Source: an uncultured Gammaproteobacteria bacterium (lineage in GTDB: Bacteria; Patescibacteriota; Microgenomatia; Levybacterales; UBA12049). From it: a stretch of 64,000 bases of DNA. The DNA lies in assembly GCA_964424775.1 (NCBI GenBank), contig CAYRJZ010000001.1:18873-82872 (forward strand). The letters are read 5' to 3'. Position 1 is the first letter of the stretch, and each line of letters opens with the position of its first letter. Positions 1,594-19,731 of the stretch are shown here, one piece after another. The notes beneath the pieces are model-generated. The model was not told where the DNA came from and ran no database searches. It saw only the letters and a list, made by a program, of their open reading frames with translations. The translations under genes were made by a program, and so were the position numbers.

Positions 1594-2922
1594 TTGAGTT
1601 ACTTGCATACAAATTTTTCACGTTATACACTTTTAGCAATAGATATACTCCCTGCCCGCCTCAGAATTCTTTTTGTGGCTACCAGGGCTACATTTGTTAT
1701 GGAAAACCATCCTATACCACAAGACGTAACCGGGTTTCAGTTTAAGCTCATCGGGAGTATGACTATTAAACAATTTGCGTATGTGGCAGCGGGGTCAGTT
1801 GTAGCTGTATTAACATACTATATTCCATTCCCTTTCCTCTTCAAGCTTATTGTTATTCCAATTTCTGGTGGATTAGGTGTCGCACTTGCCTTTCTTCCAA
1901 TCGAAGGACGGCCTCTTGACGTTATGCTGGGGAATTTCTTGAAAGATCTCTTCAATCCTACACAGTATATCTACCAGAAAACAGGAGGGACACTTCTCCT
2001 TTCGACTATTGATCTTGCGCATATACAGAGACAAACAACACAACTAGCAGCTAAATCTCATACTGATGAAAAAATAGTAAAAGCCCGAGCCGAACAACTC
2101 TCAAAATTACTTAGAACAGTGAGTACATCAACAAAAACCCAACTAGATGAAAAAGAAGAAGTATTTCTTAAGGCACTTTTTAATCCGCAGGCTCAAGGGC
2201 CAATGATGGTTACACAAAATGGACAGCCATCAATTCAGGAACACAGACTTTCAGAAGCTGAACTACTTCGTGCAAAAGTCGGACCTAACTTAGAACAGCA
2301 GGAAGATGCTCTTGAGAAGGAAGCTGAGGCCATAAAAAAAGAGCTTGAATTAGCAAAAGTCGAGGAACATACTCTTGAGGTTAATCATCAAGAGACAACA
2401 GAGGTACATACTGAAGTGGTAACGCTTGAGCAGCAATTGCAAGATATTATGCAGCAAAAACAACAGCTTGAGCAGGATCTTCTCAAGTTAAAAGAACAGA
2501 TGGAGCAACCTCAGAAAAAAGTTCAGCCACAACAGCCAGCTCAACCTATTGCTCCAGCAATAAATGTGCACAGCATTCCAACGGATCAGGCAAAACAGGT
2601 TGGCCTTCCCGCTGTCTCTGATCATCCAAATGTTGTAGCTGGAATTGTTCGTGATTCACGTGGAAATGTTCTTCCTAATATCCTTGTTGAAATAAAAGAT
2701 ACAAATGGCAATCCTGTTCGAGCCTTTAAAACAAATGGACTCGGTCAATTCGCATCCGCAACAGCACTCGCTAACGGGACCTACACAATTGAATTTGAAG
2801 ACACCAGAGGAAAACATCGCTTTGAAGTTGTGCAAATTGAAGCAAAAGGAGAAGTTATGCTTCCTCTTGAAGTAATCTCAATTGATGATAGAGAATTATT
2901 AAGAAGAGAGTTATTTAGTTAA
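1594..2922 (+). CDS. PrgI/VirB3-like membrane protein with Q-rich coiled coil and C-terminal carboxypeptidase-regulatory-like beta-sandwich domain
   Basis: The N-terminal segment FQFKLIGSMTIKQFAYVAAG plus two hydrophobic helices resembles PrgI/TcpE-type small T4SS membrane proteins encoded upstream of VirB4. The middle is E/Q/K-rich coiled coil (QQKQQLEQDLLKLKEQMEQ). The C-terminus (VVAGIVRDSRGNVLPNILVEIKDTNGNPVRAFKTNGLGQF...GTYTIEF) matches the CarboxypepD_reg/Cna-B-like fold pattern. An alternative start at 1699 (MENHPIP...) is possible. Confidence 0.55.
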   Translation: MSYLHTNFSRYTLLAIDILPARLRILFVATRATFVMENHPIPQDVTGFQFKLIGSMTIKQFAYVAAGSVVAVLTYYIPFPFLFKLIVIPISGGLGVALAFLPIEGRPLDVMLGNFLKDLFNPTQYIYQKTGGTLLLSTIDLAHIQRQTTQLAAKSHTDEKIVKARAEQLSKLLRTVSTSTKTQLDEKEEVFLKALFNPQAQGPMMVTQNGQPSIQEHRLSEAELLRAKVGPNLEQQEDALEKEAEAIKKELELAKVEEHTLEVNHQETTEVHTEVVTLEQQLQDIMQQKQQLEQDLLKLKEQMEQPQKKVQPQQPAQPIAPAINVHSIPTDQAKQVGLPAVSDHPNVVAGIVRDSRGNVLPNILVEIKDTNGNPVRAFKTNGLGQFASATALANGTYTIEFEDTRGKHRFEVVQIEAKGEVMLPLEVISIDDRELLRRELFS

Positions 2923-2923
2923 T

Positions 2924-3583
2924 ATGAAATCACCTGCCCAAAAAATACATGCAACAACGCAAAAGTTTACTGAAATCATAGACATAGTTGACAATGTCGT
3001 CATTCTCGCTGGAGGAAATGCAGCACTTGTTATTGAGATCACAGCGAGTAACTTTGCTCTTCTCTCAAAAAAAGAACAAGACTCAAAGATATTTGCCTAC
3101 GCCTCACTTCTCAACTCACTTACCTTCCCTATTGAAATTCTCATACGTAATAAAAGAATTGATATTACATCATACTTAAAAGAATTAGATGAAGAAGAAC
3201 TGACTACAAAAAATGAACTACTTGCACAGCACATCCGTCTTTACCGAGAATTTGTTCGTGAGATGGTACGAGTAAATGTCGTTCTCAATAAGACTTTCTA
3301 TATTGTTATTCCTTTCTCTTCCCTTGAAGCAGGTCTAAGTGGCGTTAAACAATCATTTGGCAAAAATGAGGCAGAAAAGCAGGCATTTGCAGAGGCAGCC
3401 AAAAAAGCTCTTAATGGAAAAGCTGAGTCTGTTCATGCACAACTTGCCAAACTATCAGTTGCATCAAAAACACTTGAAAAAGAAGAGCTTATTAAACTCT
3501 TCTATGATATTTTTAATGACTCCACCATACAAGGGACACAAGCACAAAGTGATATCGGAAGTCCGATTATTAAAGGAGCGTAA
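2924..3583 (+). CDS. VirB4-family N-terminal-like protein (possible N-terminal fragment of a split VirB4)
   Basis: The motif IIDIVDNVVILAGGNAALVIEITASNFALLSKKEQDSKIFAYASLLNS resembles the extreme N-terminus of Gram-positive-type VirB4 ATPases (PrgJ/TcpF/Orf16-like). It ends with TAA 2 nt before the ATG of the VirB4 ATPase ORF, which is in a different frame. Confidence 0.5.
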   Translation: MKSPAQKIHATTQKFTEIIDIVDNVVILAGGNAALVIEITASNFALLSKKEQDSKIFAYASLLNSLTFPIEILIRNKRIDITSYLKELDEEELTTKNELLAQHIRLYREFVREMVRVNVVLNKTFYIVIPFSSLEAGLSGVKQSFGKNEAEKQAFAEAAKKALNGKAESVHAQLAKLSVASKTLEKEELIKLFYDIFNDSTIQGTQAQSDIGSPIIKGA

Positions 3584-3585
3584 AG

Positions 3586-5505
3586 ATGAAATTACCATTT
3601 GGAAAAACAAAACCATCAACTCAACAGACTACACCCCAACCAGGACAACCTAGTCCAGCCATTCAACATTTGGAAAAAGGAATGGTAAGTCTTGTTGATG
3701 TTATTGCCCCCTCCTCTGTTGAGGTAGACTTCAAGTATATTCGTGTTGGCGAAAAATTTTATTCCACTCTCTTTATTGTGGGCTACCCACGCTACGTTTC
3801 ACCTAATTGGCTGCAACCAATTATTGATTATGACCACACTTTGGATATCGCAATGTATTGTTATCCAACTTCATCCTCAGATGTTCTTGACGATATTAAA
3901 AGAAAGATTGCAGAAATGGAGGCAACATTACAAAGTGATGCAGAGAATGGACATCCACCAGATCCACGAGTTGAGGCAGCGCTCGAAGATGCCCTTGCTC
4001 TTCAAGAAGAACTTGCAAAAGGAGTTGAACGTTTTTTCCAGTTCAGCTTTTATATTACACTTTCTGCTGATAGCTTAAACGAACTTGAAGATGCAAGTAA
4101 ACAACTAAAAACGACACTTGCTTCGCTTCTTTTGTCTGCAAAGACGGCAACCCTTCAGATGGAAGAAGGGTTTAAATCAACTATTCCCTTCGCACAAGAT
4201 AGGCTTTTCATTACACGAAATATGGACACAACATCCCTTGCTTCAACTTTCCCTTTTACATCAGCAGTTCTCACTCAAAATAAAGGAGTTATGTACGGCA
4301 TAAATCAACAAAATGGCTCACTTATCATCTTTGACCGATTCTCACTTGAAAATGCAAACGAAGTTGTTCTCGGTAAGTCTGGAGCAGGAAAATCATATCT
4401 TATAAAGCTGGAAATTATGAGACAGTTCATGTTGGGAACAGAAGTCATTGTTGTAGATCCTGAAGGGGAATATGAGGCACTCGCACGAACCTTGGGTGGT
4501 GAAGCGGTATCATTCACCTCATCCTCCCCTATTAAAATTAATCCTTTTGATCTTTCACAACTTTATGAACCAGGAGAAAACGAGTTGGGTTTGAAGATTC
4601 TCTCTCTTCATGGGCTTCTTAAGCTTATCATGGGGCAGCTTGATGCAGAACATGATGCGATTTTAGATAAAGCTCTTGTTGAAACATATAGACAAAAAGG
4701 AATTACACCAGATCCTGAAACACAGAAAAAAGCACCTCCTCTTCTTGAAGATCTCTATAAAACATTACTGGGTATGGAGACACAACCTGCAAAAGAGATG
4801 GCATATCGACTTGAAAAATTTATCCAAGGAAGTGCCGCCGGCATTTTCAATCAACCGTCTAACTTCGATATCACCAATCCTCTCACCATTTTCTCGATTA
4901 AAAACCTTGAAGAAGAGTTACGACCAATAGCAATGCATATAATTCTTGATTTTGTCTGGACGAAAGTGAAAAAGTCACTTAAGAAAAGACTTCTTATTTT
5001 GGATGAAGCGTGGTATATGATGAAGTATGAAGACTCAGCCTCATTTGTGTATTCAATTGCAAAAAGAGCACGAAAATATTACTTAGGTTTAACTACAGCA
5101 ACTCAAGACGTTGAGGACTTTCTCAAAACTGACTATGGGAAGGCAGTCCTCACAAATTCATCTATCCAGATACTATTAAAACAAGGAACTGCTGAGGTAG
5201 ATATGGTGGGAGAGGTATTCTATCTATCAGAGGGAGAAAGAGAGCTACTATTATCCGCTGACATAGGAGAAGGCCTTTTCTTTGCTGGACAGAACCACGT
5301 AGCCATGAAGGTACTCGGAGCGCAATTTGAACATGAAATAATTACTTCAAATCCTCAAGAAGTTTTGGCAGCACAACAAACACAAAATGGTCAGGCATAT
5401 CAACCGTCTACACCTACACCTACACCTACAGCTGAACCAACGGTTACGCCTCAAGAGATAGCCAACCAACCGCTACCTCAACCTCCCCTATCACAAATTC
5501 CGTAG
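3586..5505 (+). CDS. virB4: type IV secretion/conjugation ATPase, VirB4/TrbE/CagE family
   Basis: Carries the VirB4 N-domain signature (EVDFKYIRVGEKFYSTLFIVGYPRYVSPNWLQPII), Walker A (VVLGKSGAGKSYLIKLE) and Walker B with the family-typical DEAW box (RLLILDEAWYMM). The C-terminus has a Pro/Thr-rich tail (TPTPTPTAEPTVTPQE). Confidence 0.85.
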   Translation: MKLPFGKTKPSTQQTTPQPGQPSPAIQHLEKGMVSLVDVIAPSSVEVDFKYIRVGEKFYSTLFIVGYPRYVSPNWLQPIIDYDHTLDIAMYCYPTSSSDVLDDIKRKIAEMEATLQSDAENGHPPDPRVEAALEDALALQEELAKGVERFFQFSFYITLSADSLNELEDASKQLKTTLASLLLSAKTATLQMEEGFKSTIPFAQDRLFITRNMDTTSLASTFPFTSAVLTQNKGVMYGINQQNGSLIIFDRFSLENANEVVLGKSGAGKSYLIKLEIMRQFMLGTEVIVVDPEGEYEALARTLGGEAVSFTSSSPIKINPFDLSQLYEPGENELGLKILSLHGLLKLIMGQLDAEHDAILDKALVETYRQKGITPDPETQKKAPPLLEDLYKTLLGMETQPAKEMAYRLEKFIQGSAAGIFNQPSNFDITNPLTIFSIKNLEEELRPIAMHIILDFVWTKVKKSLKKRLLILDEAWYMMKYEDSASFVYSIAKRARKYYLGLTTATQDVEDFLKTDYGKAVLTNSSIQILLKQGTAEVDMVGEVFYLSEGERELLLSADIGEGLFFAGQNHVAMKVLGAQFEHEIITSNPQEVLAAQQTQNGQAYQPSTPTPTPTAEPTVTPQEIANQPLPQPPLSQIP

Positions 5506-5535
5506 TAAGAAAAATCATGCTACGATTAAAGATAT

Positions 5536-6750
5536 ATGGATGACGAGCAGTATCGAGATGATCAAGATCAACAAGAAAATTCGGAAGATAATTCATCTTC
5601 ACAAAGACCAAGTATTAACCAATTAAGACGGTCTCTTCAAAATAGACAAGTTGGCAGATCTTCACCTTTTAGATTACCCGGACTCTCAAAGATTGGTGGG
5701 AAGTCAGGATCTGGTGGCATAGGGACAACGATCAAAACAGGTGCACAAGCAGCTCGTGTAGTAGCTTTCTTTGGAACAGGTCCTGGAATTGTAGTGCTGA
5801 TTTTGCTTCTCATTTTAGTAATTATTATTCTCTTTTTTCTTGTCTTTGACCTCTCAAGTAAAGGTGTCTCAGTAACGTTGACGAAGACTGGTCCGGAGGA
5901 AGTTGAAAATGGAGAGTCTATTACTTATGATCTCAAAGTAAACTATACCGGTTCACCTCGAGAAATTGTTGTGACTGACAAAATCCCCCTCGATACTGAA
6001 TTTGTTGCTGCATCAGGCGCTGGTAATCCGACATACGACCCAACCACAAGAACAGTAACATGGAGAATCCCAATCTCCAGGAGTGGCACAAGGACAGGAA
6101 GCGCATCAGGTGATATCGTCGCGCTCCTCCCATCTACCATTCCCACGGATCCCTCAGGAGTGGATACGATAAAGGAAACCATCCTTTCTCATTTCCGTAA
6201 CTACCCTGATCTAATAACACAGTATAAAGATGCTTCCTCTACAACAGGTATCCCTTGGCAGGTTTTTGCTGGAATGCACTGGCGTGAAGGTGATGCTCTC
6301 CCAAATTACTCACTAACAAGTGGACGACCTATTGGCGATTTTGAACCAGACAGAAATGCAGCAGGAGATTGTACTGGACCAATAGGGGCTGTCGATGGAA
6401 AGGCTGATATAAATTGTACTTATGCAAACGCAGTTGATGATATTATGTTTGCTGCAGATCATCTCATCGGAAAAATCGGCAAGGTGCCTTCCTCTTATGA
6501 AGAAATCGTTCAGGCATTTTCACGATATAATGGTACTGGTAATGAAAATTGCGGAAGATCACCTTATCCCCACTGTCCACCAGTATTTGAATCAGAAGAT
6601 AGTGCCTACACCCTTAATTTCTTTGATGAAAAGCATGGTACTATGTATGCAATATACTGTAGCGATGGGACTCAGTGTGCATATGGAACGAGAGATCAAA
6701 GACCAGGCGCGCTTACCGTTACCAAATGGGTTGCAGAAGGATTAAATTAA
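5536..6750 (+). CDS. membrane-anchored surface protein with adhesin-type (DUF11/Cna-B-like) repeat and possible lysozyme-like/transglycosylase-like C-terminal domain
   Basis: Acidic disordered N-terminus, then a single strong TM (GIVVLILLLILVIIILFFLVF). The following repeat-like beta domain (SVTLTKTGPEEVENGESITYDLKVNYTGS...TVTWRIPISRSG) resembles the conserved repeat domain of surface adhesins. The Cys-containing C-terminus carries AFSRYNGTGNE, reminiscent of the AYNAG motif of SLT domains; this call is weak. Confidence 0.5.
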   Translation: MDDEQYRDDQDQQENSEDNSSSQRPSINQLRRSLQNRQVGRSSPFRLPGLSKIGGKSGSGGIGTTIKTGAQAARVVAFFGTGPGIVVLILLLILVIIILFFLVFDLSSKGVSVTLTKTGPEEVENGESITYDLKVNYTGSPREIVVTDKIPLDTEFVAASGAGNPTYDPTTRTVTWRIPISRSGTRTGSASGDIVALLPSTIPTDPSGVDTIKETILSHFRNYPDLITQYKDASSTTGIPWQVFAGMHWREGDALPNYSLTSGRPIGDFEPDRNAAGDCTGPIGAVDGKADINCTYANAVDDIMFAADHLIGKIGKVPSSYEEIVQAFSRYNGTGNENCGRSPYPHCPPVFESEDSAYTLNFFDEKHGTMYAIYCSDGTQCAYGTRDQRPGALTVTKWVAEGLN

Positions 6751-6754
6751 GACT

Positions 6755-7345
6755 ATGAACAGAAAAACGCTCTTATTTTTTAGTGTCATCTTCATCATTA
6801 TCGTTCTCCTCTTTCTTTCTCTCATTGTCTTTAGCTTAAGATCACCTCAAAACGGAACAGACAATCAACGTATGCCAAACAACTCACCTGTTCCTACACA
6901 AATTAGTATTGCTCCAAATAGAGTTACTCCTACACAGCCACAAGCAAAGCCAGTACTTATATCTGAACTTCCGAGGGAAGGATTTGCTATACGGACGAAT
7001 GCTCCTGAAGTTATAAATTCAGAACGCGAAATCGCGAAAATACGATCAAGTCTACCATTTATCAGAGATCTCAGTGGTGTGAACAAAAGAAAAATTTCTA
7101 TCGTTATTCCAGGAGCAGAATATCAGGACGATCCTTGGAAATTGACTGTACAAATTTTTGGACCTGATTATCAAATTGCTTCCTCCTCCTCAAATTATCT
7201 GTTAGAGAAAGCATTATTTATCCAAGGAGCAAACTCTGCGTTCTCTTGGATAAGAGAGAATGGAGCAGATTCTAACAAAATCATTATCAAATGGGGAGAT
7301 CAAGCATTCATCCAGCAAAGAGCTGAACAATGGATATCAGAGTAA
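6755..7345 (+). CDS. hypothetical membrane-anchored/secreted protein (N-terminal TM)
   Basis: ORF with an N-terminal hydrophobic anchor (LLFFSVIFIIIVLLFLSLIVF) and a Pro/Thr-rich linker. Sits within the T4SS-like module. Confidence 0.45.
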   Translation: MNRKTLLFFSVIFIIIVLLFLSLIVFSLRSPQNGTDNQRMPNNSPVPTQISIAPNRVTPTQPQAKPVLISELPREGFAIRTNAPEVINSEREIAKIRSSLPFIRDLSGVNKRKISIVIPGAEYQDDPWKLTVQIFGPDYQIASSSSNYLLEKALFIQGANSAFSWIRENGADSNKIIIKWGDQAFIQQRAEQWISE

Positions 7346-7361
7346 CACTTCTTCTCGATCT

Positions 7362-8957
7362 ATGTATAAAGTGAGAATTAATAAAAAATTATTCCTTCTT
7401 CTTACGTCGGTTATTGTCGGATTAGGAATATTCTTTCTATCGACAAAGTTTGGCGAAAACATTTTACCTTCCAAGACAACTGTTTCAGGTATAAAAAAAG
7501 GCGTGCTCCAATCTCAGACTGCTTATGCAGCAGTCGATGTAACAAAATACACTCAATCTCCCTACAACCTTCCTACTCCTGGAGAACCAGAAGAATTAAG
7601 CAGCGAAGCAATAACAATTGCAAACTCCGTCGGTTCGCATGTTGCATCTTTCCAAACTTATCTAACTAGCAAGCACGACGCTCAACTCGTTGATCCATTT
7701 TTATCAGCAATCTGGGCAGCAGCAATTGAAGGAATTACTTCTCCTTATTTCTGGAACTGCAATGATAATGATTCAATAACGGTAAATGATGGATGTGCTG
7801 GCAATTTTTCATCCGGAAATTGGCAAGTAGGATTTGGGATTCAAGTTTCTCAAGCAGCCAATCACATAGTTGAAGATTTTAATGCAGCATATGGGGATGG
7901 AAAAGCAGACGATGCAACTTTTGTAGGTGGAATAGGACAAGCAGTACTTGATTCCGGTAGTATATCTAATCCATCAACATTCCCAAATAAAAAACTTTCA
8001 GAAATATCTGCTGCAGCAATAAATGGAGATTCAGCATCACAACAAGCACTTGCTGTTTTACTCATGGATCAAAAATTAGGTGCAATTGCTGTTGCTCGGG
8101 AAATTGCATCAGACATTGCTGGCAATGGGTCGTGGCGGGGAGCAATGGAAGGATGGGATAGTCCTCCCGACTCCACATATTACACAGATAACATGCAAAA
8201 GTTTTCAAACAGAATGGCTTATCTTGCACAACACTACACTGGCGTCAGCGGTACAGTACCGGGTGGAGGTGTTGGTGGTGGATCATTTACTCTCAGTCTT
8301 GTTCTCAAACCGACAAAAGATGATGTCTATGTCACCAATATTGCAACCGCTTATGCTATCGGCGGCACTGGTGGAACAGGTAGCTCTTCTGCAACGACAA
8401 ATGGGCCAGTCAACCCTGATGCGACCTGTCCTGGAGAAGGACCAATTACTTGCGGAACTCGTGCAGGCAGTGCGCAAGCCTCTGCTTGTCACTGTACTGC
8501 CTCTTATGAAGAAAATGTCACAGGGTGTAATGGATACTGTTCATGGTGTCACCCACCTGATGATGGGGCTGTCTACGCTATTGATATTGCAAATCCCTTA
8601 GACGCACCTGTCTTTATTCCAAAGATATCTGTTGGAGGTGAAGTTCGTACTGTTACCTGTATAGGCTATGGAAACCAAACAGGAAGTACGGAGCCAAATC
8701 AGATCATTCAAATACTCAGTTGCTCTGATGATAAGACGGATGAGGCAGTCTGGATGCAATTTCATCATAGTAAAAAAAGTAATCCAGTTACCGAAGGGAA
8801 AACATATAAATCAGGAGAAACAGTCGGATACTCTGCTGAAATGGAGGTATTTGCTTCAGATCCTCACGTCCATTACCAAATAGGTGTAAGTGGGCCATGC
8901 GGCGCAGGTGGGACAGCAAGTTGCAGGAATGCAGACGAGTTCGTACAATGTAATTAA
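7362..8957 (+). CDS. secreted/membrane-anchored Cys- and Gly-rich protein with C-terminal M23 (LytM-like) peptidase-like domain
   Basis: The likely start is the ATG at 7362 (MYKVRINKKLFLLLTSVIVGLGIFF), because the track start at 7260 overlaps the upstream gene. N-terminal TM anchor, a Gly-rich segment (GGGVGGGSF...GGTGGTGSSS) and many Cys. The C-terminus has HxxxD (CHPPDD) and ...DPHVHYQIGV, resembling the HxH motif of M23 peptidases. Confidence 0.55.
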   Translation: MYKVRINKKLFLLLTSVIVGLGIFFLSTKFGENILPSKTTVSGIKKGVLQSQTAYAAVDVTKYTQSPYNLPTPGEPEELSSEAITIANSVGSHVASFQTYLTSKHDAQLVDPFLSAIWAAAIEGITSPYFWNCNDNDSITVNDGCAGNFSSGNWQVGFGIQVSQAANHIVEDFNAAYGDGKADDATFVGGIGQAVLDSGSISNPSTFPNKKLSEISAAAINGDSASQQALAVLLMDQKLGAIAVAREIASDIAGNGSWRGAMEGWDSPPDSTYYTDNMQKFSNRMAYLAQHYTGVSGTVPGGGVGGGSFTLSLVLKPTKDDVYVTNIATAYAIGGTGGTGSSSATTNGPVNPDATCPGEGPITCGTRAGSAQASACHCTASYEENVTGCNGYCSWCHPPDDGAVYAIDIANPLDAPVFIPKISVGGEVRTVTCIGYGNQTGSTEPNQIIQILSCSDDKTDEAVWMQFHHSKKSNPVTEGKTYKSGETVGYSAEMEVFASDPHVHYQIGVSGPCGAGGTASCRNADEFVQCN

Positions 8958-9430
8958 TGACTCTCAGGCTTCATAAGTTCTTATTAGCTGGAATATTTTT
9001 ATTTGCTTTACTAGTTATTATCTTACTTGTATTTATTAATTTCTCACCATCTTCTCAATCTCCTTCAACCTCACCTGCTCCCACTTCTTTACCGATTGAT
9101 GAGCGTGGAACATCACACATAAAAGCAACAAGTATTAATCCCCCAGAAGACACTTCAGGCACCACTATTCTTAATCCATCTCAAAAAATTGAATATACAC
9201 TAAATCAAGACTCAGTATCACCAAGTGAAGTTACTGTACGAGTTTCACCAACTATTCCTGTAAAAATAAGACAAAATACTGATGGGAAAATTGAAGTGTT
9301 TCCTGATCCTCCCTACTTCTGGAAGCCTGATGTTCTTTATAAAATCACACTGCTTGATAAGGACAACCAGGTAATTACGACCTACTCTATTAAAGTACCG
9401 CGTATAAAACTTCCAGAAGTTGTTGATTAA
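8957..9430 (+). CDS. hypothetical membrane-anchored Ser/Pro/Thr-rich protein
   Basis: N-terminal TM (LLAGIFLFALLVIILLVFINF) followed by a low-complexity S/P/T region. The start overlaps the stop of the upstream gene by 1 nt. Confidence 0.45.
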   Translation: MTLRLHKFLLAGIFLFALLVIILLVFINFSPSSQSPSTSPAPTSLPIDERGTSHIKATSINPPEDTSGTTILNPSQKIEYTLNQDSVSPSEVTVRVSPTIPVKIRQNTDGKIEVFPDPPYFWKPDVLYKITLLDKDNQVITTYSIKVPRIKLPEVVD

Positions 9431-10184
9431 TATGAAAAAATTGCTTGTTTCATCTTTATTTCTTTTATTATTTGGATCTTTCTTGACATCAATGGTAGAA
9501 GCTGCAACCACTTCAACCAGCTGTTTCACAACGAAAGTTGGTGATCCAACTGGTGACAAACCAGAACTTCCAGCAGAGTGCAATAGCGGAACAAGTGGCG
9601 GTGGTGCAGTTGGGCCATGTCAGGCAGCTCCTCCTGCAAATTTTACCAGCGAGGGAGAGTATAGAAAAGCTATTTCTGATAAATGGAGAATAAGTCTTTT
9701 TCTTCCTCTTCATCAAATGCAAAATGCATGGAAGGAATTTCATGAAATCGACTGTACTGGAATTCTCCAAGACATAAGTGGCTCTGTTGTGGGAAGCTGG
9801 GAAAATGGCTGGTCTGAGCAATTTTCATGCCCAGGCGATGATGGGGTCAATCTCTATATATCCAGTCAGTTTTCAGGGGAATGGGTCGAGACACATTTAG
9901 TGCATGAGTTAACTCACATTTGGCAAAATTGTAGCTCCAGAGGGGAATCGAACAGATTAGAAAATAACACTGCATATGATGCAGAAGGAGGAATCACTAA
10001 TTACTCACGAACAAAGTGTGGTTTTGATGTTGATGTGTATAAAGAAGATCATGCCGAATCAATTTCCCTCTACCTTAACCCTCAAAGCGGAGAGTCTACT
10101 TGTGCTACAACTAATGTAAATCCTTTTACGAATGGTGGATTCCCAGAGCATGCAAAAGCTGCAAGAAATGGAACAGGAAAATGA
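9420..10184 (+). CDS. secreted putative zinc metalloprotease (HExxH)
   Basis: Classical signal peptide (MKKLLVSSLFLLLFGSFLTSMVEAA), the zincin motif HLVHELTHIW and multiple Cys in the mature part (about 10). Confidence 0.5.
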   Translation: MLINMKKLLVSSLFLLLFGSFLTSMVEAATTSTSCFTTKVGDPTGDKPELPAECNSGTSGGGAVGPCQAAPPANFTSEGEYRKAISDKWRISLFLPLHQMQNAWKEFHEIDCTGILQDISGSVVGSWENGWSEQFSCPGDDGVNLYISSQFSGEWVETHLVHELTHIWQNCSSRGESNRLENNTAYDAEGGITNYSRTKCGFDVDVYKEDHAESISLYLNPQSGESTCATTNVNPFTNGGFPEHAKAARNGTGK

Positions 10185-10825
10185 AAAATAATAAATCTCT
10201 ATTATTTTTAGTTATACTTCTTGGAGTTGGAGTTATACTACTTCTTATTTTAATTATTTCATCATTTTTCAGTTCTCCCCAGAATACAAATGACAATGCA
10301 AATAGGCTTCCAACACCAGTTCGCAATACGACAAATCCAGATGATACTAAGTCTTTTGAATTTACCCCTCTTCAACGAACAATCATTGGTCAAACAAAGG
10401 ATGAGAATATTAAAAAATTAGAAAAAGTCATTTCAGAAAAAGAGCAAGATGGAATAAAGACATATATCACACAATCGTACATAAAACAGTACACGAATGA
10501 GATTCGAACAAAAAATGGCGTGGTTATTTTTGAAACTACACGAACTGAGATTTCATCTCCCCCTCCTCCTAAGTTAAATACTTTTCAAGATTTGTATGGT
10601 CAACCCGAACTTGTATTGGATAGTGTTTCTGAGTTAGGAAAACATGTTTCAGCGTATATTTATGCTAGTAAAGGCTTTACATTATTTGCTAATAGGTACA
10701 CCAAAACAGTGTATGATGTTCATAGATATCTTCCTATGAGCCTTAGTGAGTATCAAAAAGAATATTCTCGCTACCTTCAACCTGCCCCTCCCTATCCTCA
10801 GGAAAGACCAGACGCTGCGAATTAA
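10181..10825 (+). CDS. hypothetical membrane-anchored protein
   Basis: N-terminal TM (LLFLVILLGVGVILLLILIISSFF) and a 4-nt overlap with the upstream gene. Last gene of the plus-strand module, convergent with dnaN. Confidence 0.45.
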   Translation: MKNNKSLLFLVILLGVGVILLLILIISSFFSSPQNTNDNANRLPTPVRNTTNPDDTKSFEFTPLQRTIIGQTKDENIKKLEKVISEKEQDGIKTYITQSYIKQYTNEIRTKNGVVIFETTRTEISSPPPPKLNTFQDLYGQPELVLDSVSELGKHVSAYIYASKGFTLFANRYTKTVYDVHRYLPMSLSEYQKEYSRYLQPAPPYPQERPDAAN

Positions 10826-11931
10826 TTCTGTAACCTGATAGGCATTATGAGATGAAGAAATGATTCATTATCTTTTATCTTAAATACTCCTGGATTAAGA
10901 GGACCAGTCATCTCAAATGTCAGAATGTCTGAGGGTATATTTGATAAGACATCTAATAGATAACGAGCGTTAAAGGCGATCTCATTTTCCTCTCCCTCTA
11001 AATTAGCCTCAACATCAACAGTGTTATCACCAAGGGACGGATTTTTTGAGAGAACAACGATCTTATCACTCTTTAAGGAAAGTGTAATGATATTTGCAGC
11101 GTCTCTTGCAAAGATGGAACAAATCTTTACAGCTTTTAACAACTCTTCCCTGTCAAAAGCCGTTCGTGAGGCATGGTCAGATGGAATTATCTTTTCAAAA
11201 GGAGGAAATTCTGCTCCAATGAGACGACCAATAAGAAGTGTCTCTCCTAACTCAAATATAACTTGATTGCTTCCTTTTGAAACATGAATAGAGACAGTCT
11301 CTGCTTCATCTTTCATCGAAAGGACCTCGCGCATTACTCGTGCTGGAACGATGAGTGATTCTTCTGTTCCTGTTCTACCGTTCTGAAGGGAGAGATGTTT
11401 TAAAGAAAGTCTGTATCCATCAGTTGCAACTAAAAGAAACCCACTTGCTTCACTTCTTAAAAGTGTTACCGAGAGAGCAGGACGAGTAGTATCATTACTT
11501 GCTGAGAAAACGACCATGCCCGCATCTTTTTTCAGATCTGCAAACTGTACTGTTGCGAGAAGTTCTCCCTTTTCTTCATATAATTTAGGGAAATCTTCTT
11601 TTGCTAGTGTTTGAAATGAGCTTTTCGTTTTTTTACTCTCTACTATTAATGATCCATCAGTTGTTGTTAAGGTTACTGTCTCATGAGGAAGTGAGGAAAT
11701 AAGCTCGGTAAATGTCTTTGCAGGTATTGTGGTCCCACCTTCTTCATGAATCTCTGCTTGAACTGATGTATGAATTCCTATCTCAAGGTCAGTACTACTG
11801 AGTGTAACACTGCCATTCTTTGCTTCAATGAGAATATTAAGAAGTACTGGAAGATCGTTGCGACTTGAGATAGCGTGATTTAAGAATGTTAATTTTTTCT
11901 GGAGATTTTCGCTGGTAACGCTTATCTTCAT
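10822..11931 (-). CDS. dnaN: DNA polymerase III beta subunit (sliding clamp)
   Basis: Typical DnaN N-terminus (MKISVTSENLQKKLTFLNHAISSRNDLPVLLNILIEA), 369 aa with three-domain length, immediately downstream of dnaA. Confidence 0.9.
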   Translation of the reverse strand: MKISVTSENLQKKLTFLNHAISSRNDLPVLLNILIEAKNGSVTLSSTDLEIGIHTSVQAEIHEEGGTTIPAKTFTELISSLPHETVTLTTTDGSLIVESKKTKSSFQTLAKEDFPKLYEEKGELLATVQFADLKKDAGMVVFSASNDTTRPALSVTLLRSEASGFLLVATDGYRLSLKHLSLQNGRTGTEESLIVPARVMREVLSMKDEAETVSIHVSKGSNQVIFELGETLLIGRLIGAEFPPFEKIIPSDHASRTAFDREELLKAVKICSIFARDAANIITLSLKSDKIVVLSKNPSLGDNTVDVEANLEGEENEIAFNARYLLDVLSNIPSDILTFEMTGPLNPGVFKIKDNESFLHLIMPIRLQN

Positions 11932-12200
11932 ATATATCTATTAGATGTTGTAGTAGTGTATATGGAAATGTATAAATCTACCCCATAATACAATACTGTT
12001 TTAAGAAACGTCTCAAAAAACCAGGCTAATATGAAAAAACGGTACATCTATAAAAATATATAATAATTAATGAAAGCACGAGATATAGCCTGGGGATAAA
12101 TGTGGATAAGATGTTGATAAAAATGGGGATGAGTTAGGGATAACTCGACCATAAAAGTTATCCCTAAGTTTTACCCACGGATACGATTTGTTATCCCCTG
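11932..12200. promoter_or_regulatory. candidate oriC segment: AT-rich dnaA-dnaN spacer with clustered DnaA boxes
   Basis: TGTGGATAA at 12101-12109, TGGGGATAA at 12091-12099, GGGATAAC/GTTATCCC variants at about 12137-12165 and 12190-12197, and a highly AT-rich stretch at 11932-12080 that could serve as a DNA unwinding element. Confidence 0.5.
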
Positions 12201-13568
12201 GATATCCTCACTCACCTTAGCTTTATTCTCCACAAGTGATTCAATTTTATCCACACCATGCATAATCGTTGTATGGTCACGTCCTCCCAAGAGTCCACCT
12301 ATTTCTACATAAGTTAATCCCAACTCCTCTTTGAGAAGATACATAGCGACCTGGCGAGCTTTGACAAGATTGGCATCTCTCTTTGGTCCACGAAGTTGGG
12401 TTGGTTTTATTCCATAAAAGTCACAGACACCCTTAAGTACGTCCTCAGCATGGATATGCTCACGTTTCTCTTCCTGCATCAGTCCCAAGGCTCGTTGTGC
12501 CACTTCAATCGTTATATCTGATCCCATACTTGTTGCCTGTGTTATAACTCGAAGCAGGAGCCCTTCAAGGCTTCGTGCATCCTGAACGCGCTCAGCAATC
12601 ATTTTTGCAACATCAATTGGGAGTTGATGGCCATACTTCTCTGCTTTTTTGAGAAGGATAGCTGTCTTGAGTTCAAAGTCAGGAGTCTCGATATCAACTG
12701 TTAGTCCCCCAGCAAAGCGTGAAGAGAGTCTTTTCTCAAGTTTTTTTATCTCATGTGGTGGGCGGTCAGAGGAAAGGCAAATCTGCGCCCCATTATCAAT
12801 GAGAATATTAAAAGTATGGAATAACTCTTCTTGTACTCGATCCTTCCCTTCAATAAATTGAATATCATCAATAAGGAGAAGAACAGCTGAGCGGAACTTT
12901 CTCTTCATTTGAGAGGTGTTATTATTTCTAATTGCTTCAACGACTTCATTGGTGAATTCCTCACTTGTAATATAAATAATTTTTTTATCAGGTTGTTTGA
13001 GGTAGACTGAATTTGCAATAGCATGCATGAGATGAGTCTTCCCCACTCCAACCGGTCCGTAAATAAAGAGCGGGTTGTATGATGTCCCAATATGATCAGC
13101 AACTGTTGCTGAAGCAGTAAAAGCAAGCTGATTGCTACTGGAGACGGCGAAATTACTGAAGGTATAATCGGCACGTACACGCGGAAGGTGTCCAACAGCT
13201 ATTGTTTTTTGAGATGTAGTATGAGAAGTCATGTGAAGAGGCTGTGTTTCATTCTTTCCAGTAGGAGTGTTCGTAAATAAAGGACCTTCTTTCTCATCGC
13301 TAGAGGGAATGTGGGTAAATGTCTTCGTTGTAAAAAAAAGAGTAACGTCTTCTTTTGTGTGTTTTTCAAGTGATGCCTTAATATCCGCTTGGAAGCGTTT
13401 TTGTAAAAGATCGACAATCATTGTTGAAGGTGCGGCTATTGTTGCAATTTTATCTTCCCACGAAAGAAGCTCAGTGTGTTTGAAGAAAGTAACAAAACTT
13501 GCCTTTGACACCTTTTTTTCAAGATCTGATAATACATTTGTCCATAGTGTGGATAACTCAGATTCCAT
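12171..13568 (-). CDS. dnaA: chromosomal replication initiator DnaA
   Basis: AAA+ Walker A (GPVGVGKTHLMHAIAN) and the C-terminal DnaA-box-binding domain (DHTTIMHGVDKIE). The probable start is at 13568 (MESELSTLWTNVLSDL, a DnaA-like N-terminus); the track ORF extends to 13685 through DnaA-box DNA. Confidence 0.9.
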   Translation of the reverse strand: MESELSTLWTNVLSDLEKKVSKASFVTFFKHTELLSWEDKIATIAAPSTMIVDLLQKRFQADIKASLEKHTKEDVTLFFTTKTFTHIPSSDEKEGPLFTNTPTGKNETQPLHMTSHTTSQKTIAVGHLPRVRADYTFSNFAVSSSNQLAFTASATVADHIGTSYNPLFIYGPVGVGKTHLMHAIANSVYLKQPDKKIIYITSEEFTNEVVEAIRNNNTSQMKRKFRSAVLLLIDDIQFIEGKDRVQEELFHTFNILIDNGAQICLSSDRPPHEIKKLEKRLSSRFAGGLTVDIETPDFELKTAILLKKAEKYGHQLPIDVAKMIAERVQDARSLEGLLLRVITQATSMGSDITIEVAQRALGLMQEEKREHIHAEDVLKGVCDFYGIKPTQLRGPKRDANLVKARQVAMYLLKEELGLTYVEIGGLLGGRDHTTIMHGVDKIESLVENKAKVSEDIQGITNRIRG

Positions 13569-13717
13569 AAACGATTCCTTTTGCTGGATTTCCCAAAAAT
13601 TAGGGCAAGAAGCGGGATCTCTACAGGGCGTGTAGTAGTCAGTGTAGTAATGTGGATAACTGATGTCAAGAACGAAAATAGACATACTTTTCCTTTGAGG
13701 CCAAATATGATATACTT
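13540..13717. promoter_or_regulatory. dnaA upstream region with DnaA boxes and the rpmH/dnaA divergent promoter region
   Basis: TGTGGATAA at 13548-13556 and 13651-13659, within the AT-rich divergent region between dnaA and rpmH. Confidence 0.4.
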
Positions 13718-13726
13718 ATGAGTGAA

Positions 13727-13861
13727 ATGGAAAAATTTGTAACACTCAAAAAGGTTAAAAGACAGCGAAAACACGGATTTTTAGCTCTTTCCTCATCTCA
13801 TAATGGGAAAAAAGTTCTTCAGCGCCGACGATCAAAAGGAAGAAAATCACTTACTATCTAA
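13727..13861 (+). CDS. rpmH: 50S ribosomal protein L34
   Basis: Absent from the ORF track. Manual translation gives M(SEM)EKFVTLKKVKRQRKHGFLALSSSHNGKKVLQRRRSKGRKSLTI, which aligns along its whole length with the canonical L34 sequence (MKRTFQPS.LKR.R.HGFRARM.TKNGR.VL.RRR.KGRKRLTV). An alternative ATG is at 13718. Confidence 0.8.
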   Translation: MEKFVTLKKVKRQRKHGFLALSSSHNGKKVLQRRRSKGRKSLTI

Positions 13862-13862
13862 C

Positions 13863-14192
13863 ATGCTTCCTAAAGACTTTCGTCTTCCCGTTACTCCCTA
13901 CTCTCCGTTTACTCACACCTACAAAACACCTTTTTTCTTGTTAAAGATAAGAAGTAATAATAGTACGCGCTCTCGATTTGGATTTACGGTAAGTAAAAAA
14001 ATTGATACTCGAGCTGTTGTGAGAAACCAGTCAAGAAGAAAACTTCAAATGTCTCTCCACGAACTTCTACCACACGTAAAGCCAGGATATGATTTTCTTT
14101 TTATTGCCAGTTCTAATATAAAAGAATGTTCTATGGATGAACTAAAATTGTGTATAAATGATCTCTTCCAAAAAAATGATTTTCTTCAATGA
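13863..14192 (+). CDS. rnpA: ribonuclease P protein component
   Basis: Basic protein with RnpA-like motifs (FGFTVSKKIDTRAVVRNQSRRKL). The start is placed at the ATG 1 nt after the rpmH stop; the track start at 13803 overlaps rpmH. Confidence 0.8.
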   Translation: MLPKDFRLPVTPYSPFTHTYKTPFFLLKIRSNNSTRSRFGFTVSKKIDTRAVVRNQSRRKLQMSLHELLPHVKPGYDFLFIASSNIKECSMDELKLCINDLFQKNDFLQ

Positions 14193-14413
14193 AACGCACT
14201 TTCCTTTCTTTCATTCATTTTTATCAAGTTGTCATATCACCTCTTCTTCATCAAACTCTAGGTGTTCCACCGGGTGGAGGCTGTCGGTATACTCCAACAT
14301 GCTCTGAGTATGCTTCGCAGGTAATAAAAGAGTATGGTATACTACGAGGATCGATTAAGTCTCTCAAAAGAGTTCTTTCTTGTCAGCCTTTTTTCCATGG
14401 GAAACATATTTGA
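14189..14413 (+). CDS. yidD: membrane protein insertion efficiency factor YidD
   Basis: Cys-containing signature C-R-Y-T-P-T-C-S-E-Y-A, the expected size (74 aa) and the position between rnpA and yidC. Confidence 0.8.
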   Translation: MKRTFLSFIHFYQVVISPLLHQTLGVPPGGGCRYTPTCSEYASQVIKEYGILRGSIKSLKRVLSCQPFFHGKHI

Positions 14414-15218
14414 AGTTATCATCCTTGCCCCAATTACCAATCTCTTATTGGCAATTTACCAAGTAGTTCAGGCTACAGGTTTGCCGTATGGGCTTGGTTT
14501 TTCTGTCATTCTTCTGACTCTTGCTATGCGTTTTATCCTCGCTCCTCTTACCTCTCAGCAACTCCGATCCGCTCAGAAAATGCAGAGTGTGGCACCAGAA
14601 GTTGCAAAGTTAAAAGAAAAGTATAAAAATAATCCACAACGACTCCAAGCAGAAACAATGCTTCTTTATAAAAATAATGGTATTAACCCGGCCGCTGGAT
14701 GTCTTCCTGTTCTTCTGCAGCTTCCAATTCTCTGGGGATTATATTCAGTACTGCAGCATTTAGTAAAAGAAACATCAGTTGATGCTATCAATAAATTTGC
14801 TTATGCAGATTGGTTAAAGCTGACGACTCTTTGGGACACACATTTTTTTGGGATTCCCCTCGCAAAAACACCATCCGAACTTCTTCCTGTCCTTGGTTTC
14901 GGCATAGTTCTTCTTCCTTTCCTCACTGGATTTACTCAGTTCATTCAATCAAAGATGATGATTCCACATAAAGAAGAGGAAAAGAATGTCTCAAAGAAGA
15001 AAAAAGAAGTGAAAACAAAGACAGAACCAGATTTTGCTACCGCGTTTCAAACCCAGACTGTTTACATTTTTCCATTTATGATCGGGTTTTTCTCTTTTAC
15101 GTTTCCTGCTGGTTTGTCACTCTACTGGATAACTTTCACACTTTTTGGTATCATACAGCAGTATAAAATTCAGGGAGCGGGTAGTTTGACTCCTCATCTC
15201 TCTCGAATTAAAAAATAA
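14397..15218 (+). CDS. yidC: membrane protein insertase YidC/Oxa1 family (short form)
   Basis: Multi-TM protein in the conserved rnpA-yidD-yidC-jag context, with a basic C-terminal tail (KKKKEVKTKTE). The start is probably MGNIFEV at 14397. Confidence 0.8.
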   Translation: MGNIFEVIILAPITNLLLAIYQVVQATGLPYGLGFSVILLTLAMRFILAPLTSQQLRSAQKMQSVAPEVAKLKEKYKNNPQRLQAETMLLYKNNGINPAAGCLPVLLQLPILWGLYSVLQHLVKETSVDAINKFAYADWLKLTTLWDTHFFGIPLAKTPSELLPVLGFGIVLLPFLTGFTQFIQSKMMIPHKEEEKNVSKKKKEVKTKTEPDFATAFQTQTVYIFPFMIGFFSFTFPAGLSLYWITFTLFGIIQQYKIQGAGSLTPHLSRIKK

Positions 15219-17073: not shown

Positions 17074-19731
17074 ATGGATACTGCCAAACCTCGACTTGTC
17101 GTTGATAAAGAAGGTTTTTTAGGAAATTCACTCCTGAGTATTTTTGATGATTCACTTCTCACAATTATTGTCACCAAAACTGTTCCTGAAACAAATAGAA
17201 GTATTTTGCATATTCCTTTTACGAAACGTATCCCAAAGATTCCAGATAATTCTTTTTCAGAGATTTTTTTAGTCTACAATGGTGAAAAGGAACTCCTTGA
17301 AGCACTTCCAGCATTTCTAAAAAAAGCACGTGAAGAAGGAGCTAGATTTTATTTCATTACTAGTATTTTCCATCTTCCGCGTGGATTTGCTGCAAGACTC
17401 CAGAAACAATATCCAGAAGTTTTTTTACTCATTACCGGAGATATTTTTAGTAACACTATCCATCCTTCCTCCCCAGTCTCAGCGCTTCTTCATGAGGCAA
17501 AAGAATATGGACATGTAATGCTCTATGAATCAGGGCTTCATGCTGTCTACCCTGTTGCACTGAAAGACGTAATAGAAGCAATACAAGCAATACGCAGTGC
17601 AAGTGTTATAGAACAGAGAGTTTTTGCACTTTATCCAAAATACCCACCAACAAGTATAACGCTTACACGCATACTCCAGAAATTATACCCCCTCCTCCAG
17701 GTAGATTTCTCAAAGAAAAAAAAGTTACATGAAAAAATAGAATTTCCAGACAATCCACTTTACGTCTTTGGGGGAAATTATCCACTTGAGCAGCGGCTAA
17801 AAGAGCTTGATCTTACCTTTACTCCCCTTCTTCCGAGACAAGGACAGAAAAAGAAAATAAAACGCATTCGCACCAAATCACAAAGACGATATATTTTCTT
17901 AGCAATTTCCATTTTTTTCTTCCTTTTCGCACTTCCCAGCATGACAACACTTGGGTTTGCGACAGGGGGAGGTTTTATGCTTCTTCAAAGTCAAAAGGCT
18001 TTTGAGAGTGGAAAGTTTGAGGAAGCAAGACAAGCAGCCTTCACTGGTCATACTTTTTTCACCATTGCCAAAAGATCAATTGAGACAGTGAAAATGAGTT
18101 TTGGAAGAGTTATAGGAAATGACGAGTTACTTGGCCTAGAACGAACAATGGAGAATGGTGAAAAAGTTGCTGACATCCTCCAAAACGGCGCGATAGCAGC
18201 TGCAAGTATCCAAAACGTCGTGCAAGGAAGTTCTCCAAAACCAAAGGAAGAATTCCTTGAAGGGAGTAACAAATTGAAAGAAGCTCTGACTCTTCTTCAA
18301 GAAATGCAGGTAGAAGGATCAATTCCACAGGCATATGCAAAAAAACTTGAGCCACTTAAGCCTATGGTTACATTAATGCTCAATACTATTGATACCTATC
18401 CAGAATTATTAGGATTTGAGCAAAGAAAACAGTATTTAGTACTTTTCCAAAATAATTTTGAATTACGAGCAACAGGGGGATTTATAGGCTCATACGGTCT
18501 TTTAACGCTTGAGCAGGGAAGAGTTGTTTCATTTGTGATCCAGGATGTCTATGAAACAGATGGGCAGTTAAAAGAGCATGTTGATCCGCCTTTCGCACTA
18601 AGACGATACATGGGTGCAAGTCACTGGTATTTGAGGGATAGTAATTATGCGATCGATTTCCCTACAGCTGCTGCTCAGTCAGCAGAGTTTCTAAGAAAAG
18701 TCACAAAGACAAAAGTTGATGGAGTCATCGCAGTCGATACCACATTCCTCAGCAGCATGCTTGATGTAACAGGCCCAATACATCTTCCAGATTATAAAGA
18801 AACAATCACTCGTGACAACTTCTTTTTGACTACTCAAAAACATGTTGAGGAAGAGTTTTTTCCTGGATCCACACAGAAGCGTGACTATCTTCGAGCACTC
18901 CATTCAGCCATTGAGCAGAAATTGGATAGTAATAAGTTACCATATCAAAAACTTTTGATGCTTCTCGCAGAAGGGGTAGATCAAAAACATGTGATAGTTG
19001 CTTTTGCGGATCAGTCAATTCAACGACTCTATACTGTCAATAATGTGTCCGGAAGTTTGTGGGAGGGGAGAGTGGATAATGAACAGACAGCAACTGATTT
19101 CTTAAGTGTGAATGAAATGAATATTGGTCTTAATAAAGTGAACTATTACATAAAGCGGGGGATTACACAGGATGTCTCAATTGATGGGGAAGGGAATGTG
19201 AATGAAAAGGTAGAAATAGCATATATAAATACAAGTGATACCTCATCACCTTTTGGTGGAGAGTATAAGGCGTATCTTCGCTTTGTCCTTCCTGAGAACG
19301 CAGTTATGTCAGGATTGCTCATTGATAATGTCGAGACACCCACAACACCCGCTATTACTGACCCAGCAAGATACACTGCACGCAACTTTATCGCCCCAAA
19401 AGAAATTGAAATTGAGACTATGCAAAGTAATGGCCATTCTGTAATCGGTATGTATATTACGGTCCCAACTCGTTCTCAGAAAAAATACACATTGTCATAT
19501 ACACTTCCAGAGCGATTTCCCATTGAGAGTCCTGAGTCGATCTATTCACATAGAATAGTGAAGCAGCCCGGCACACTCAACGATTCATATAGGTTAACGA
19601 TTCGTTATCCTCTCTCACTTCAACTCTTTAAATCATCAAGTGGGGTAAGTAATATTGGTGGAAAACTTATCTACGAATCAGAACTAGATACGGACGAAGA
19701 TCTCCAAGTAACGTTTATTCCCTCGAATTAA
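17074..19731 (+). CDS. large DUF4012-family membrane-anchored protein with N-terminal cytoplasmic domain
   Basis: The family-typical motif NNFELRATGGFIGSYGLLTLEQGRVVSFVIQDVYETDG sits in the extracytoplasmic part after a TM (IFLAISIFFFLFALPSMTTLGF). A roughly 300-aa N-terminal alpha/beta domain precedes the TM. The start is taken at the ATG at 17074 to avoid overlap with the upstream gene. Confidence 0.6.
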   Translation: MDTAKPRLVVDKEGFLGNSLLSIFDDSLLTIIVTKTVPETNRSILHIPFTKRIPKIPDNSFSEIFLVYNGEKELLEALPAFLKKAREEGARFYFITSIFHLPRGFAARLQKQYPEVFLLITGDIFSNTIHPSSPVSALLHEAKEYGHVMLYESGLHAVYPVALKDVIEAIQAIRSASVIEQRVFALYPKYPPTSITLTRILQKLYPLLQVDFSKKKKLHEKIEFPDNPLYVFGGNYPLEQRLKELDLTFTPLLPRQGQKKKIKRIRTKSQRRYIFLAISIFFFLFALPSMTTLGFATGGGFMLLQSQKAFESGKFEEARQAAFTGHTFFTIAKRSIETVKMSFGRVIGNDELLGLERTMENGEKVADILQNGAIAAASIQNVVQGSSPKPKEEFLEGSNKLKEALTLLQEMQVEGSIPQAYAKKLEPLKPMVTLMLNTIDTYPELLGFEQRKQYLVLFQNNFELRATGGFIGSYGLLTLEQGRVVSFVIQDVYETDGQLKEHVDPPFALRRYMGASHWYLRDSNYAIDFPTAAAQSAEFLRKVTKTKVDGVIAVDTTFLSSMLDVTGPIHLPDYKETITRDNFFLTTQKHVEEEFFPGSTQKRDYLRALHSAIEQKLDSNKLPYQKLLMLLAEGVDQKHVIVAFADQSIQRLYTVNNVSGSLWEGRVDNEQTATDFLSVNEMNIGLNKVNYYIKRGITQDVSIDGEGNVNEKVEIAYINTSDTSSPFGGEYKAYLRFVLPENAVMSGLLIDNVETPTTPAITDPARYTARNFIAPKEIEIETMQSNGHSVIGMYITVPTRSQKKYTLSYTLPERFPIESPESIYSHRIVKQPGTLNDSYRLTIRYPLSLQLFKSSSGVSNIGGKLIYESELDTDEDLQVTFIPSN

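Follow-up and report, generated by a model that had tools for sequence, protein, structure and literature searches.

The closest described counterparts of the locus considered here are the chromosomal type IV secretion systems (T4SS) of Patescibacteria. Passages of Quinonero-Coronel et al. 2025 (PMC12102498) name TrsD as the T4SS component that was recovered most often in these bacteria, with 2,272 homologues spread over 2,221 assemblies; 1,664 of these homologues adjoin virB4. According to the same passages, the T4SS of Microgenomatia and other classes lies near dnaA, dnaN and rnpA, and a TrsD homologue is essential in Ca. Southlakia epibionticum. Wang et al. 2023 (PMC10633639) found the T4SS cluster to be essential for epibiotic growth in one system tested. 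The TrsD family is also said there, in the passages of PMC12102498, to share remote homology with the N-terminus of VirB4; the statement is absent from the main text of Guglielmini 2014 (PMC4027160), and its attribution rests on the citation in PMC12102498. In this work we have examined two adjacent open reading frames, ORF1 and ORF2, in a 64,000-nucleotide stretch of DNA (the window) which covers positions 18,873 to 82,872 of the forward strand of contig CAYRJZ010000001.1 (assembly GCA_964424775.1), titled as an uncultured Gammaproteobacteria bacterium and placed by GTDB among the Patescibacteriota (Microgenomatia, Levybacterales). An earlier note on this DNA, made from its letters alone, had taken them for a VirB4-family ATPase encoded in two parts. 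We conclude, with a probability of about 0.85, that they are two genes, separate but co-transcribed and coupled in translation, which together encode what is elsewhere a single VirB4 polypeptide.

ORF1 occupies positions 2924 to 3583 of the plus strand; it starts with ATG, encodes 219 residues and ends with a TAA at 3581-3583. After a spacer of two nucleotides (AG, 3584-3585), ORF2 begins with its own ATG and runs on the same strand from 3586 to 5505, encoding 639 residues. The junction reads GCG TAA AG ATG, and its central part, TAA-AG-ATG (3581..3588, +), is a stop-start arrangement of the translational-coupling type. The two start codons lie in different frames (2924 mod 3 = 2; 3586 mod 3 = 1). 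A Shine-Dalgarno motif for ORF2, AAAGGAG, is located inside the last codons of ORF1 (3572..3578, +), 7 nucleotides before the ORF2 ATG. Upstream, a PrgI/VirB3-like gene stops at 2922, one nucleotide ahead of the ATG of ORF1. Because all genes from about 1702 to 10825 are on the plus strand and are separated by tiny gaps or overlap, the whole block looks like one operon. The lengths, the different frames and the TAA-AG-ATG junction given in the earlier note are exact by coordinates, and the peptides which it quoted, DNVVILAGGNAALVIEITASNFALLSKKEQ from ORF1 and EVDFKYIRVGEKFYSTLFIVGYP from ORF2, are present in the respective products. Could such a junction be read through? Two frames in a -1 relation, only 2 nucleotides apart and with a summed length equal to that of a normal VirB4, would suit a programmed -1 frameshift or a bypass of the stop codon that yields a single VirB4 of 858 residues. 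However, the frame of ORF2 meets a stop, TAA, at 3571-3573 and is open for only 12 nucleotides upstream of its ATG; the stretch left for a shift is 7 nucleotides long, AGGAGCG, and holds no slippery heptamer. ORF2 moreover has a Shine-Dalgarno motif of its own and a conserved N-terminal motif that begins with methionine.

ORF2 scored 387.9 bits (9e-116) against the NCBIfam model conju_CD1110, whose cut-off is 325, and matched other VirB4/TraC models too. Its Pfam matches were P-loop_TraG (96 bits vs a cut-off of 25.8), DUF87 and AAA_10. The VirB4 C-terminal domain of PDB entry 4AG5 matched residues 229-588 at 2e-45, TrwK matched at 1.5e-4, and the similarity to TrsE of plasmid pSK41 reached 3e-47. 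Translation and alignment to pSK41 TrsE place the Walker A motif GKSGAGKS at residues 263-270 (4372..4395, +) and the Walker B region ILDE at residues 471-474 (4996..5007, +). The neighbours of the gene are also those of a T4SS, with the PrgI/VirB3-like gene two genes upstream, in an order which is found in plasmid T4SS loci as well. Given its Walker motifs, a score above a curated cut-off, homology to a solved domain and this context, ORF2 is identified as a VirB4-type T4SS ATPase on the strength of its sequence. Residues 1-34, a low-complexity leader, begin with a conserved MKLPFxK; residues 35-228 make up the remaining N-terminal domain, residues 229-590 the P-loop C-terminal domain and residues 590-639 a P/T/Q-rich tail. 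In the DNA, the two ends of ORF2 correspond to 3586-3690, where MKLPFxK is followed by a P/Q/T segment of about 30 residues, and to 5350-5505, which encodes the tail of about 50 residues. The length of the tail accounts for the size range of the ORF2 homologs, which is 614-799 residues among the best 120; none of these has an ORF1-like N-terminus.

The part which ORF2 does not contain is the beginning of VirB4. Every full-length VirB4 profile matched it only from an internal position, namely 178 of 752 for CD1110 (the matched region being 178-733), 293 of 894 for VirB4_plasma, 239 of 792 for TIGR00929 and 272 of 800 for a further one, and for this reason we regard ORF2 as lacking the first ~180-290 profile positions, or the first ~180 residues of a one-piece VirB4. 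Neither these profile alignments nor the alignment with a VirB4 from Carboxydocella reveal a complete VirB4 N-terminal domain in the ORF2 polypeptide. The missing segment is supplied by ORF1. We also considered a gene duplication, in which ORF1 would be an extra copy of a domain still present in ORF2; this is ruled out, as ORF2 does not have that segment.

Four independent lines of evidence (profiles, the Carboxydocella VirB4, natural fusions and a model of ORF1) point to ORF1 as the N-terminus of VirB4. Among the profiles, NCBIfam VirB4_plasma (NF045975) is a single full-length VirB4 model in which ORF1 matches positions 99-278 of 894 at 6e-8 and ORF2 matches positions 293-893, so that the two are colinear and do not overlap. 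ORF1 also matches positions 11-200 of the 201 in the NCBIfam TrsD/TraD model NF041427 (E 0.002) and, weakly, the Pfam model of the TraC N-terminus. A phmmer search of ORF1 against PDB sequences returned noise only. Pfam PF26593 is precomputed for 118 of the best 120 listed ORF1 homologs, and the local Pfam scan gave no match of this family to ORF1 itself. In its layout ORF1 resembles TrsD: it is a stand-alone protein in the range of about 200-230 residues, whose gene has virB4 directly downstream and a virB3/prgI-like gene upstream. The second line comes from plasmid pCCELLA01 of Carboxydocella thermautotrophica, which encodes a one-piece VirB4 of 754 residues. Residues 10-176 of this protein align with the ORF1 family profile (hhalign probability 97.8%, E 9e-13), and residues 183-747 match ORF2 at 1e-71. 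The earlier note had seen in ORF1 a motif of the extreme N-terminus of Gram-positive VirB4 proteins, had read the two ORFs as one VirB4 and had proposed an alignment to a full-length VirB4; the Carboxydocella protein bears out the first claim through its residues 10-176 and, together with the profiles and the fusions, the homology of ORF2 to the remainder.

The fusions occur in two groundwater Levyibacteriota genomes, in which the TrsD-like gene and virB4 are joined in frame to encode single proteins of 779 residues (L068; JACPGP010000016.1, 3992-6331) and 767 residues (L070; CP066685.1, 3995-6298). Both proteins match first ORF1 (residues 5-199) and then ORF2 (residues 35-599); in L068 the corresponding segments are 4-196 and 210-774, and about 55 residues at the junction have been swapped for a linker of 13 residues. 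Neither fusion has the C-terminal tail of ORF1 or the MKLPFxK leader of ORF2. These natural re-fusions prove that the two products are colinear with a one-piece VirB4. In a neighbour-joining tree of the ATPase the fused pair is nested among split loci; the outgroup, pSK41, has two separate genes, and so has the locus which branches off first. For this reason the fusions look secondary, which is only suggestive, the tree being rough and its rooting branch long. The last line is structural. With an AlphaFold model of ORF1 as the query, the top 8 Foldseek matches in the PDB were all to TrwK/VirB4 of R388 (probability 0.89-0.98), and no other family was comparable. The alignment between a model of the concatenated ORF1 and ORF2 (858 residues) and the TrwK chain, which has 808 residues, extends over 799 columns with an E of 1.6e-13. 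The model was built from an unpaired alignment bridged by another natural fusion, P0294, which is acceptable only in part, and it supports linear colinearity with TrwK but not the packing of the domains.

Several observations weigh against the view that ORF1 and ORF2 are the two parts of one VirB4. ORF1 scores only 18 bits on the TrsD model NF041427, the cut-off of which is 200, and an hhalign comparison with TrsD of pSK41 gave an E of 0.0056 and a probability of 6.5%. On these two grounds ORF1 cannot be counted as a close member of TrsD. It is TrsD-like by its size, its position and its remote homology to the VirB4 N-terminus, and we file it in a broader family of detached VirB4 N-terminal subdomains (precomputed Pfam domain PF26593). 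The model of ORF1 is only moderately confident (predicted local distance difference test score, pLDDT, 67; predicted template-modelling score, pTM, 0.59) and gives low TM-scores, 0.33-0.37, when compared with TrwK. The concatenated model is poor, with a pLDDT of 61.7, a pTM of 0.36, a TM-score of 0.20 and a root-mean-square deviation of about 27 Å to TrwK. Many members of the ORF1 family carry long disordered tails which are absent from one-piece VirB4 proteins, a hint of an additional or different role. Lastly, the binding of the ORF1 and ORF2 proteins to each other is itself a prediction.

Is the split real, or was a single virB4 broken by an indel in sequencing or assembly, or by recent pseudogenisation? 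Nothing beyond the presence of two adjacent ORFs in different frames would favour such an origin. In a scan of one genome per species we obtained 80 related loci, 76 of which could be analysed at the junction. At these 76 loci an ORF1 homolog is directly followed by an ORF2 homolog, as two genes in 74 cases and as a fused gene in the other 2. The junctions comprise 39 ATGA overlaps, 8 TAATG overlaps, 10 gaps of +1 nucleotide, 6 of +2 (the class to which the present locus belongs), 2 of +3 and a few longer ones, besides the 2 fusions; the spacings found are -4, -1, +1, +2, +3, +4, +8 and up to 150 nucleotides. All frame relations occur, including pairs in the same frame parted by a stop, and since the relative frame differs between loci, a conserved programmed frameshift is excluded. 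A core resembling a Shine-Dalgarno motif precedes the ORF2 start at 45 of 67 close junctions, compared with 15 of 67 in a control window, and the N-terminus of ORF2 is conserved among the related loci as M-[KNSG]-L-[PF]-F-x-K. Both genes are under strong purifying selection. Compared with the nearest relative (L001), the proportion of nonsynonymous differences (pN) is 0.058 and that of synonymous differences (pS) 0.708 for ORF1; for ORF2 the values are 0.076 and 0.723, and pN/pS is about 0.08-0.1 for both genes.

The two-gene form extends well beyond these loci. A set of 5.8 billion proteins contains 906 homologs of ORF1. The best 120 are 57-100% identical to it, have 189-237 residues (216-228 in nearly every case) and originate in metagenomes of Patescibacteria or Levybacteria. 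The split is also seen in hundreds of protein clusters from NCBI, JGI, ENA and Logan. A profile search of 1.84 billion representatives returned 2,091 relatives of the ORF1 family at E <= 1e-3. Among the best 150 of them only P0294 (787 residues) and one fragment are fused; the remainder have about 205-245 residues or are made longer by a disordered tail rich in P, Q and T, not by an ATPase. The comparison of orthologous loci which the earlier note had proposed finds the split conserved in 74 of 76 species-level loci. Of the three readings which that note had left side by side, the genuine split is the one upheld, by this conservation, by the varying frames and by purifying selection. A sequencing error or pseudogene is contradicted by 74 of 76 independent species-level assemblies that share the split, by finished plasmids of Firmicutes that share it too and by a rate of nonsynonymous substitution (dN) far below the synonymous rate (dS) in both ORFs, and we consider it the least probable explanation of all, at the very bottom of the scale. 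The frameshift or bypass, given its varying frames and the junction described above, is scarcely more credible. Both explanations are effectively refuted. Among the related loci from metagenome-assembled genomes (MAGs; L002, L003, L007-L009 and others with CAY*/CAZ* accessions), many bear the record title 'uncultured Gammaproteobacteria bacterium' and a few 'Lysobacterales', 'Acidiferrales' or 'Limnocylindrales'. All these records nevertheless carry the Levybacteria-type T4SS trio, at 55-79% identity, and their titles look like taxonomic mislabels.

How would two proteins do the work of one? The comparisons establish that the genes are distinct, conserved, closely coupled and syntenic across loci, and that they are homologous to complementary stretches of a one-piece VirB4. 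The ORF1 product carries the first subdomain, of about 180 residues, of the VirB4 N-terminal domain, and the ORF2 product the rest of this domain together with the P-loop ATPase domain. The tight stop-start coupling (TAA-AG-ATG with the internal AAAGGAG here, an ATGA overlap in most relatives) would probably yield the two proteins in near-equimolar amounts, although their stoichiometry, like their physical assembly, is something we infer from the arrangement of the genes. The ORF1 product may then dock non-covalently on the N-terminal region of ORF2 (residues ~35-228) and also on the PrgI/VirB3-like membrane protein encoded upstream, and this docking would rebuild the membrane-proximal N-terminal module and might anchor the ATPase. 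[quoted passage not shown]

It is also conceivable that ORF1, while descended from the N-terminus of VirB4, has become an independent accessory factor, such as an assembly chaperone, an adaptor for pilin or substrate, or a regulator of VirB4 oligomerisation, and is not a stoichiometric structural piece which rebuilds the N-terminal domain. Many representatives of the family have disordered C-terminal tails of 50-500 residues, rich in P, Q and T and similar to tethers or recruitment regions, and some members end in a conserved PFVVEEL-like motif. Passages of PMC12102498 add that TrsD homologues of Gracilibacteria are not next to virB4 and that TrsD has no assigned function to date. Yet the segment absent from ORF2 is exactly what ORF1 supplies, a single clade passes between the fused and the split form with neither part lost, tight translational coupling is the rule, and ORF1 of the present locus has no long tail. 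We therefore hold an accessory role to be unlikely, though far less so than the frameshift. The terminal peptide, PFVVEELxDDYG-like, was seen in a subset of the relatives P0253-P0390 (P0338, P0340, P0347, P0351, P0354, P0365, P0384 and P0387-P0390), and it may be a docking motif. The repeated acquisition of tails across Patescibacteria, some with a PFVVEEL-type end, and re-fusion by deletion of the junction (L068, L070) led us to a further idea, which we offer as speculative and rather doubtful: that the detached N-terminal subunit is an exchangeable hub that tethers VirB4 to VirB3, pilins or host-derived cargo, and that the fission is ancestral to the monoderm T4SS branch which comprises the Bacillus plasmids, pGO1 and Patescibacteria. 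If true, it would point to the donor lineage of an essential system of Patescibacteria.

The PrgI/VirB3-like membrane protein is encoded at 1702..2922 (+); the ORF is listed from a TTG at 1594 (1594-2922), and the ATG at 1702 is the likely start. It matches Pfam PrgI (PF12666) at 2.4e-7 (31.6 bits, cut-off 27) and PF13620 at 1e-7. The protein is unusually long, with a PrgI domain, a Q/E-rich middle resembling a coiled coil and a C-terminal CarboxypepD_reg/Ig-like domain. In 79 of the 80 related loci the gene immediately preceding the TrsD-like one, on the same strand, is a PrgI-like homolog, whereas passages of PMC12102498 put only 22.6% of the VirB3 homologues of Microgenomatia near virB4. 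The discrepancy suggests that the published hidden Markov models miss the long PrgI-like form. Downstream of ORF2 the ORF list shows six tightly packed genes on the plus strand (5536..10825), for proteins of 404, 196, 565, 157, 254 and 214 residues. Pfam and NCBIfam scans of these six gave no significant family match, and the block is patchily conserved in the related loci, the 404- and 565-residue products only partly. The six genes probably encode very divergent T4SS components, VirB6/VirB8-like, or envelope components. Because of an overlap of 86 nucleotides with the ORF at 6755-7345, the start of the ORF at 7260-8957 may be mis-set.

Directly after this block come dnaN (10822-11931, minus strand; Pfam DNA_pol3_beta domains), dnaA (12171-13685, minus strand; Pfam Bac_DnaA 2e-63), rnpA (13803-14192, plus strand) and yidC (14334-15218, plus strand), which places the T4SS genes next to the chromosomal replication origin. 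We conclude that the locus is a chromosomal, origin-proximal T4SS typical of Patescibacteria, of the Microgenomates/Levybacteria type. Upstream of the operon, at positions 1-1590 of the window, the ORFs are unconvincing, with translations of non-coding appearance, and neither an Rfam family nor a tRNA was found; the Rfam and tRNA scans of the window as a whole gave nothing relevant. Genes for VirB2-like pilins, which are expected near such loci, were not recognised, nor were a relaxase or a coupling protein among the neighbouring ORFs scanned.

For annotation, these results mean that ORF1 and ORF2 should be kept as two genes and be called neither a frameshift nor a pseudogene, and that ORF1 deserves the name of a TrsD-like VirB4 N-terminal-domain protein instead of hypothetical. 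The natural fusions, the colinearity with one-piece VirB4 and the fold match are also clean evidence for TrsD as the missing N-terminal subdomain of VirB4, from which follows a concrete hypothesis: it would anchor VirB4 to VirB3 or mediate dimerisation. The passages of PMC12102498 found by keyword contain no mention of fusions of the L068/L070 type, of a PrgI-like gene in 79 of 80 loci or of junction-frame statistics; the natural re-fusions and the junction-frame statistics are small additions to those passages.

Where, then, does this locus stand among known systems? One-piece VirB4 proteins of monoderm bacteria (pCCELLA01, the CD1110 family) and TrwK of R388 share the ATPase motifs and the fold, and ORF1 plus ORF2 is colinear with the whole of them. 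They are single polypeptides, however, whereas in this locus a gene of its own encodes the first ~180 residues, and the linker of the one-piece form has turned into the C-terminal tail of ORF1 and the low-complexity leader of ORF2. Closer is the pGO1/pSK41 pair of TrsD/TraD and TrsE/TraE (NF041427; pGO1 subclass of MPF_FATA). In pSK41 a protein of the same size of about 220 residues (227, annotated trsD of the TrsD/TraD family) is encoded between a VirB3-like protein and a VirB4 of 672 residues, TrsE, which like ORF2 is without the N-terminal subdomain. pSK41, which is a conjugative plasmid, differs in having a relaxase and coupling protein and in a 14-nucleotide gap between trsD and trsE. The order PrgI/VirB3-like, ORF1-like, short VirB4 recurs in pSK41 and in three further plasmids, where the ORF1-like protein and VirB4 have 318 and 636 residues (Geobacillus pGspE55-1), 274 and 621 residues (a Pontibacillus plasmid), and 227 and 630 residues (B. 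thuringiensis pBMB67). The Bacillus, Geobacillus and Pontibacillus trios of PrgI, a hypothetical protein and a DUF87/CD1110-type VirB4 have an identical order and similar sizes (227-318 and 621-636 residues) and are the plasmid sequences that match ORF1 best (E down to 3e-10), but they are plasmid-borne and often conjugative, and their middle gene is annotated only as hypothetical. The chromosomal T4SS of Patescibacteria, as presented by PMC10633639 and by passages of PMC12102498, has the same PrgI/VirB3-like, TrsD-like and VirB4 set beside dnaA, dnaN and rnpA; the nearest relatives of ORF1 and ORF2 are found in Patescibacteria/Levybacteria MAGs, and nothing substantive differs. The two-gene arrangement of VirB4 has already been described for Patescibacteria and for plasmids of Gram-positive bacteria and, because passages of PMC12102498 report TrsD next to virB4 near dnaA as we see it here, our finding is a correct rediscovery of it.

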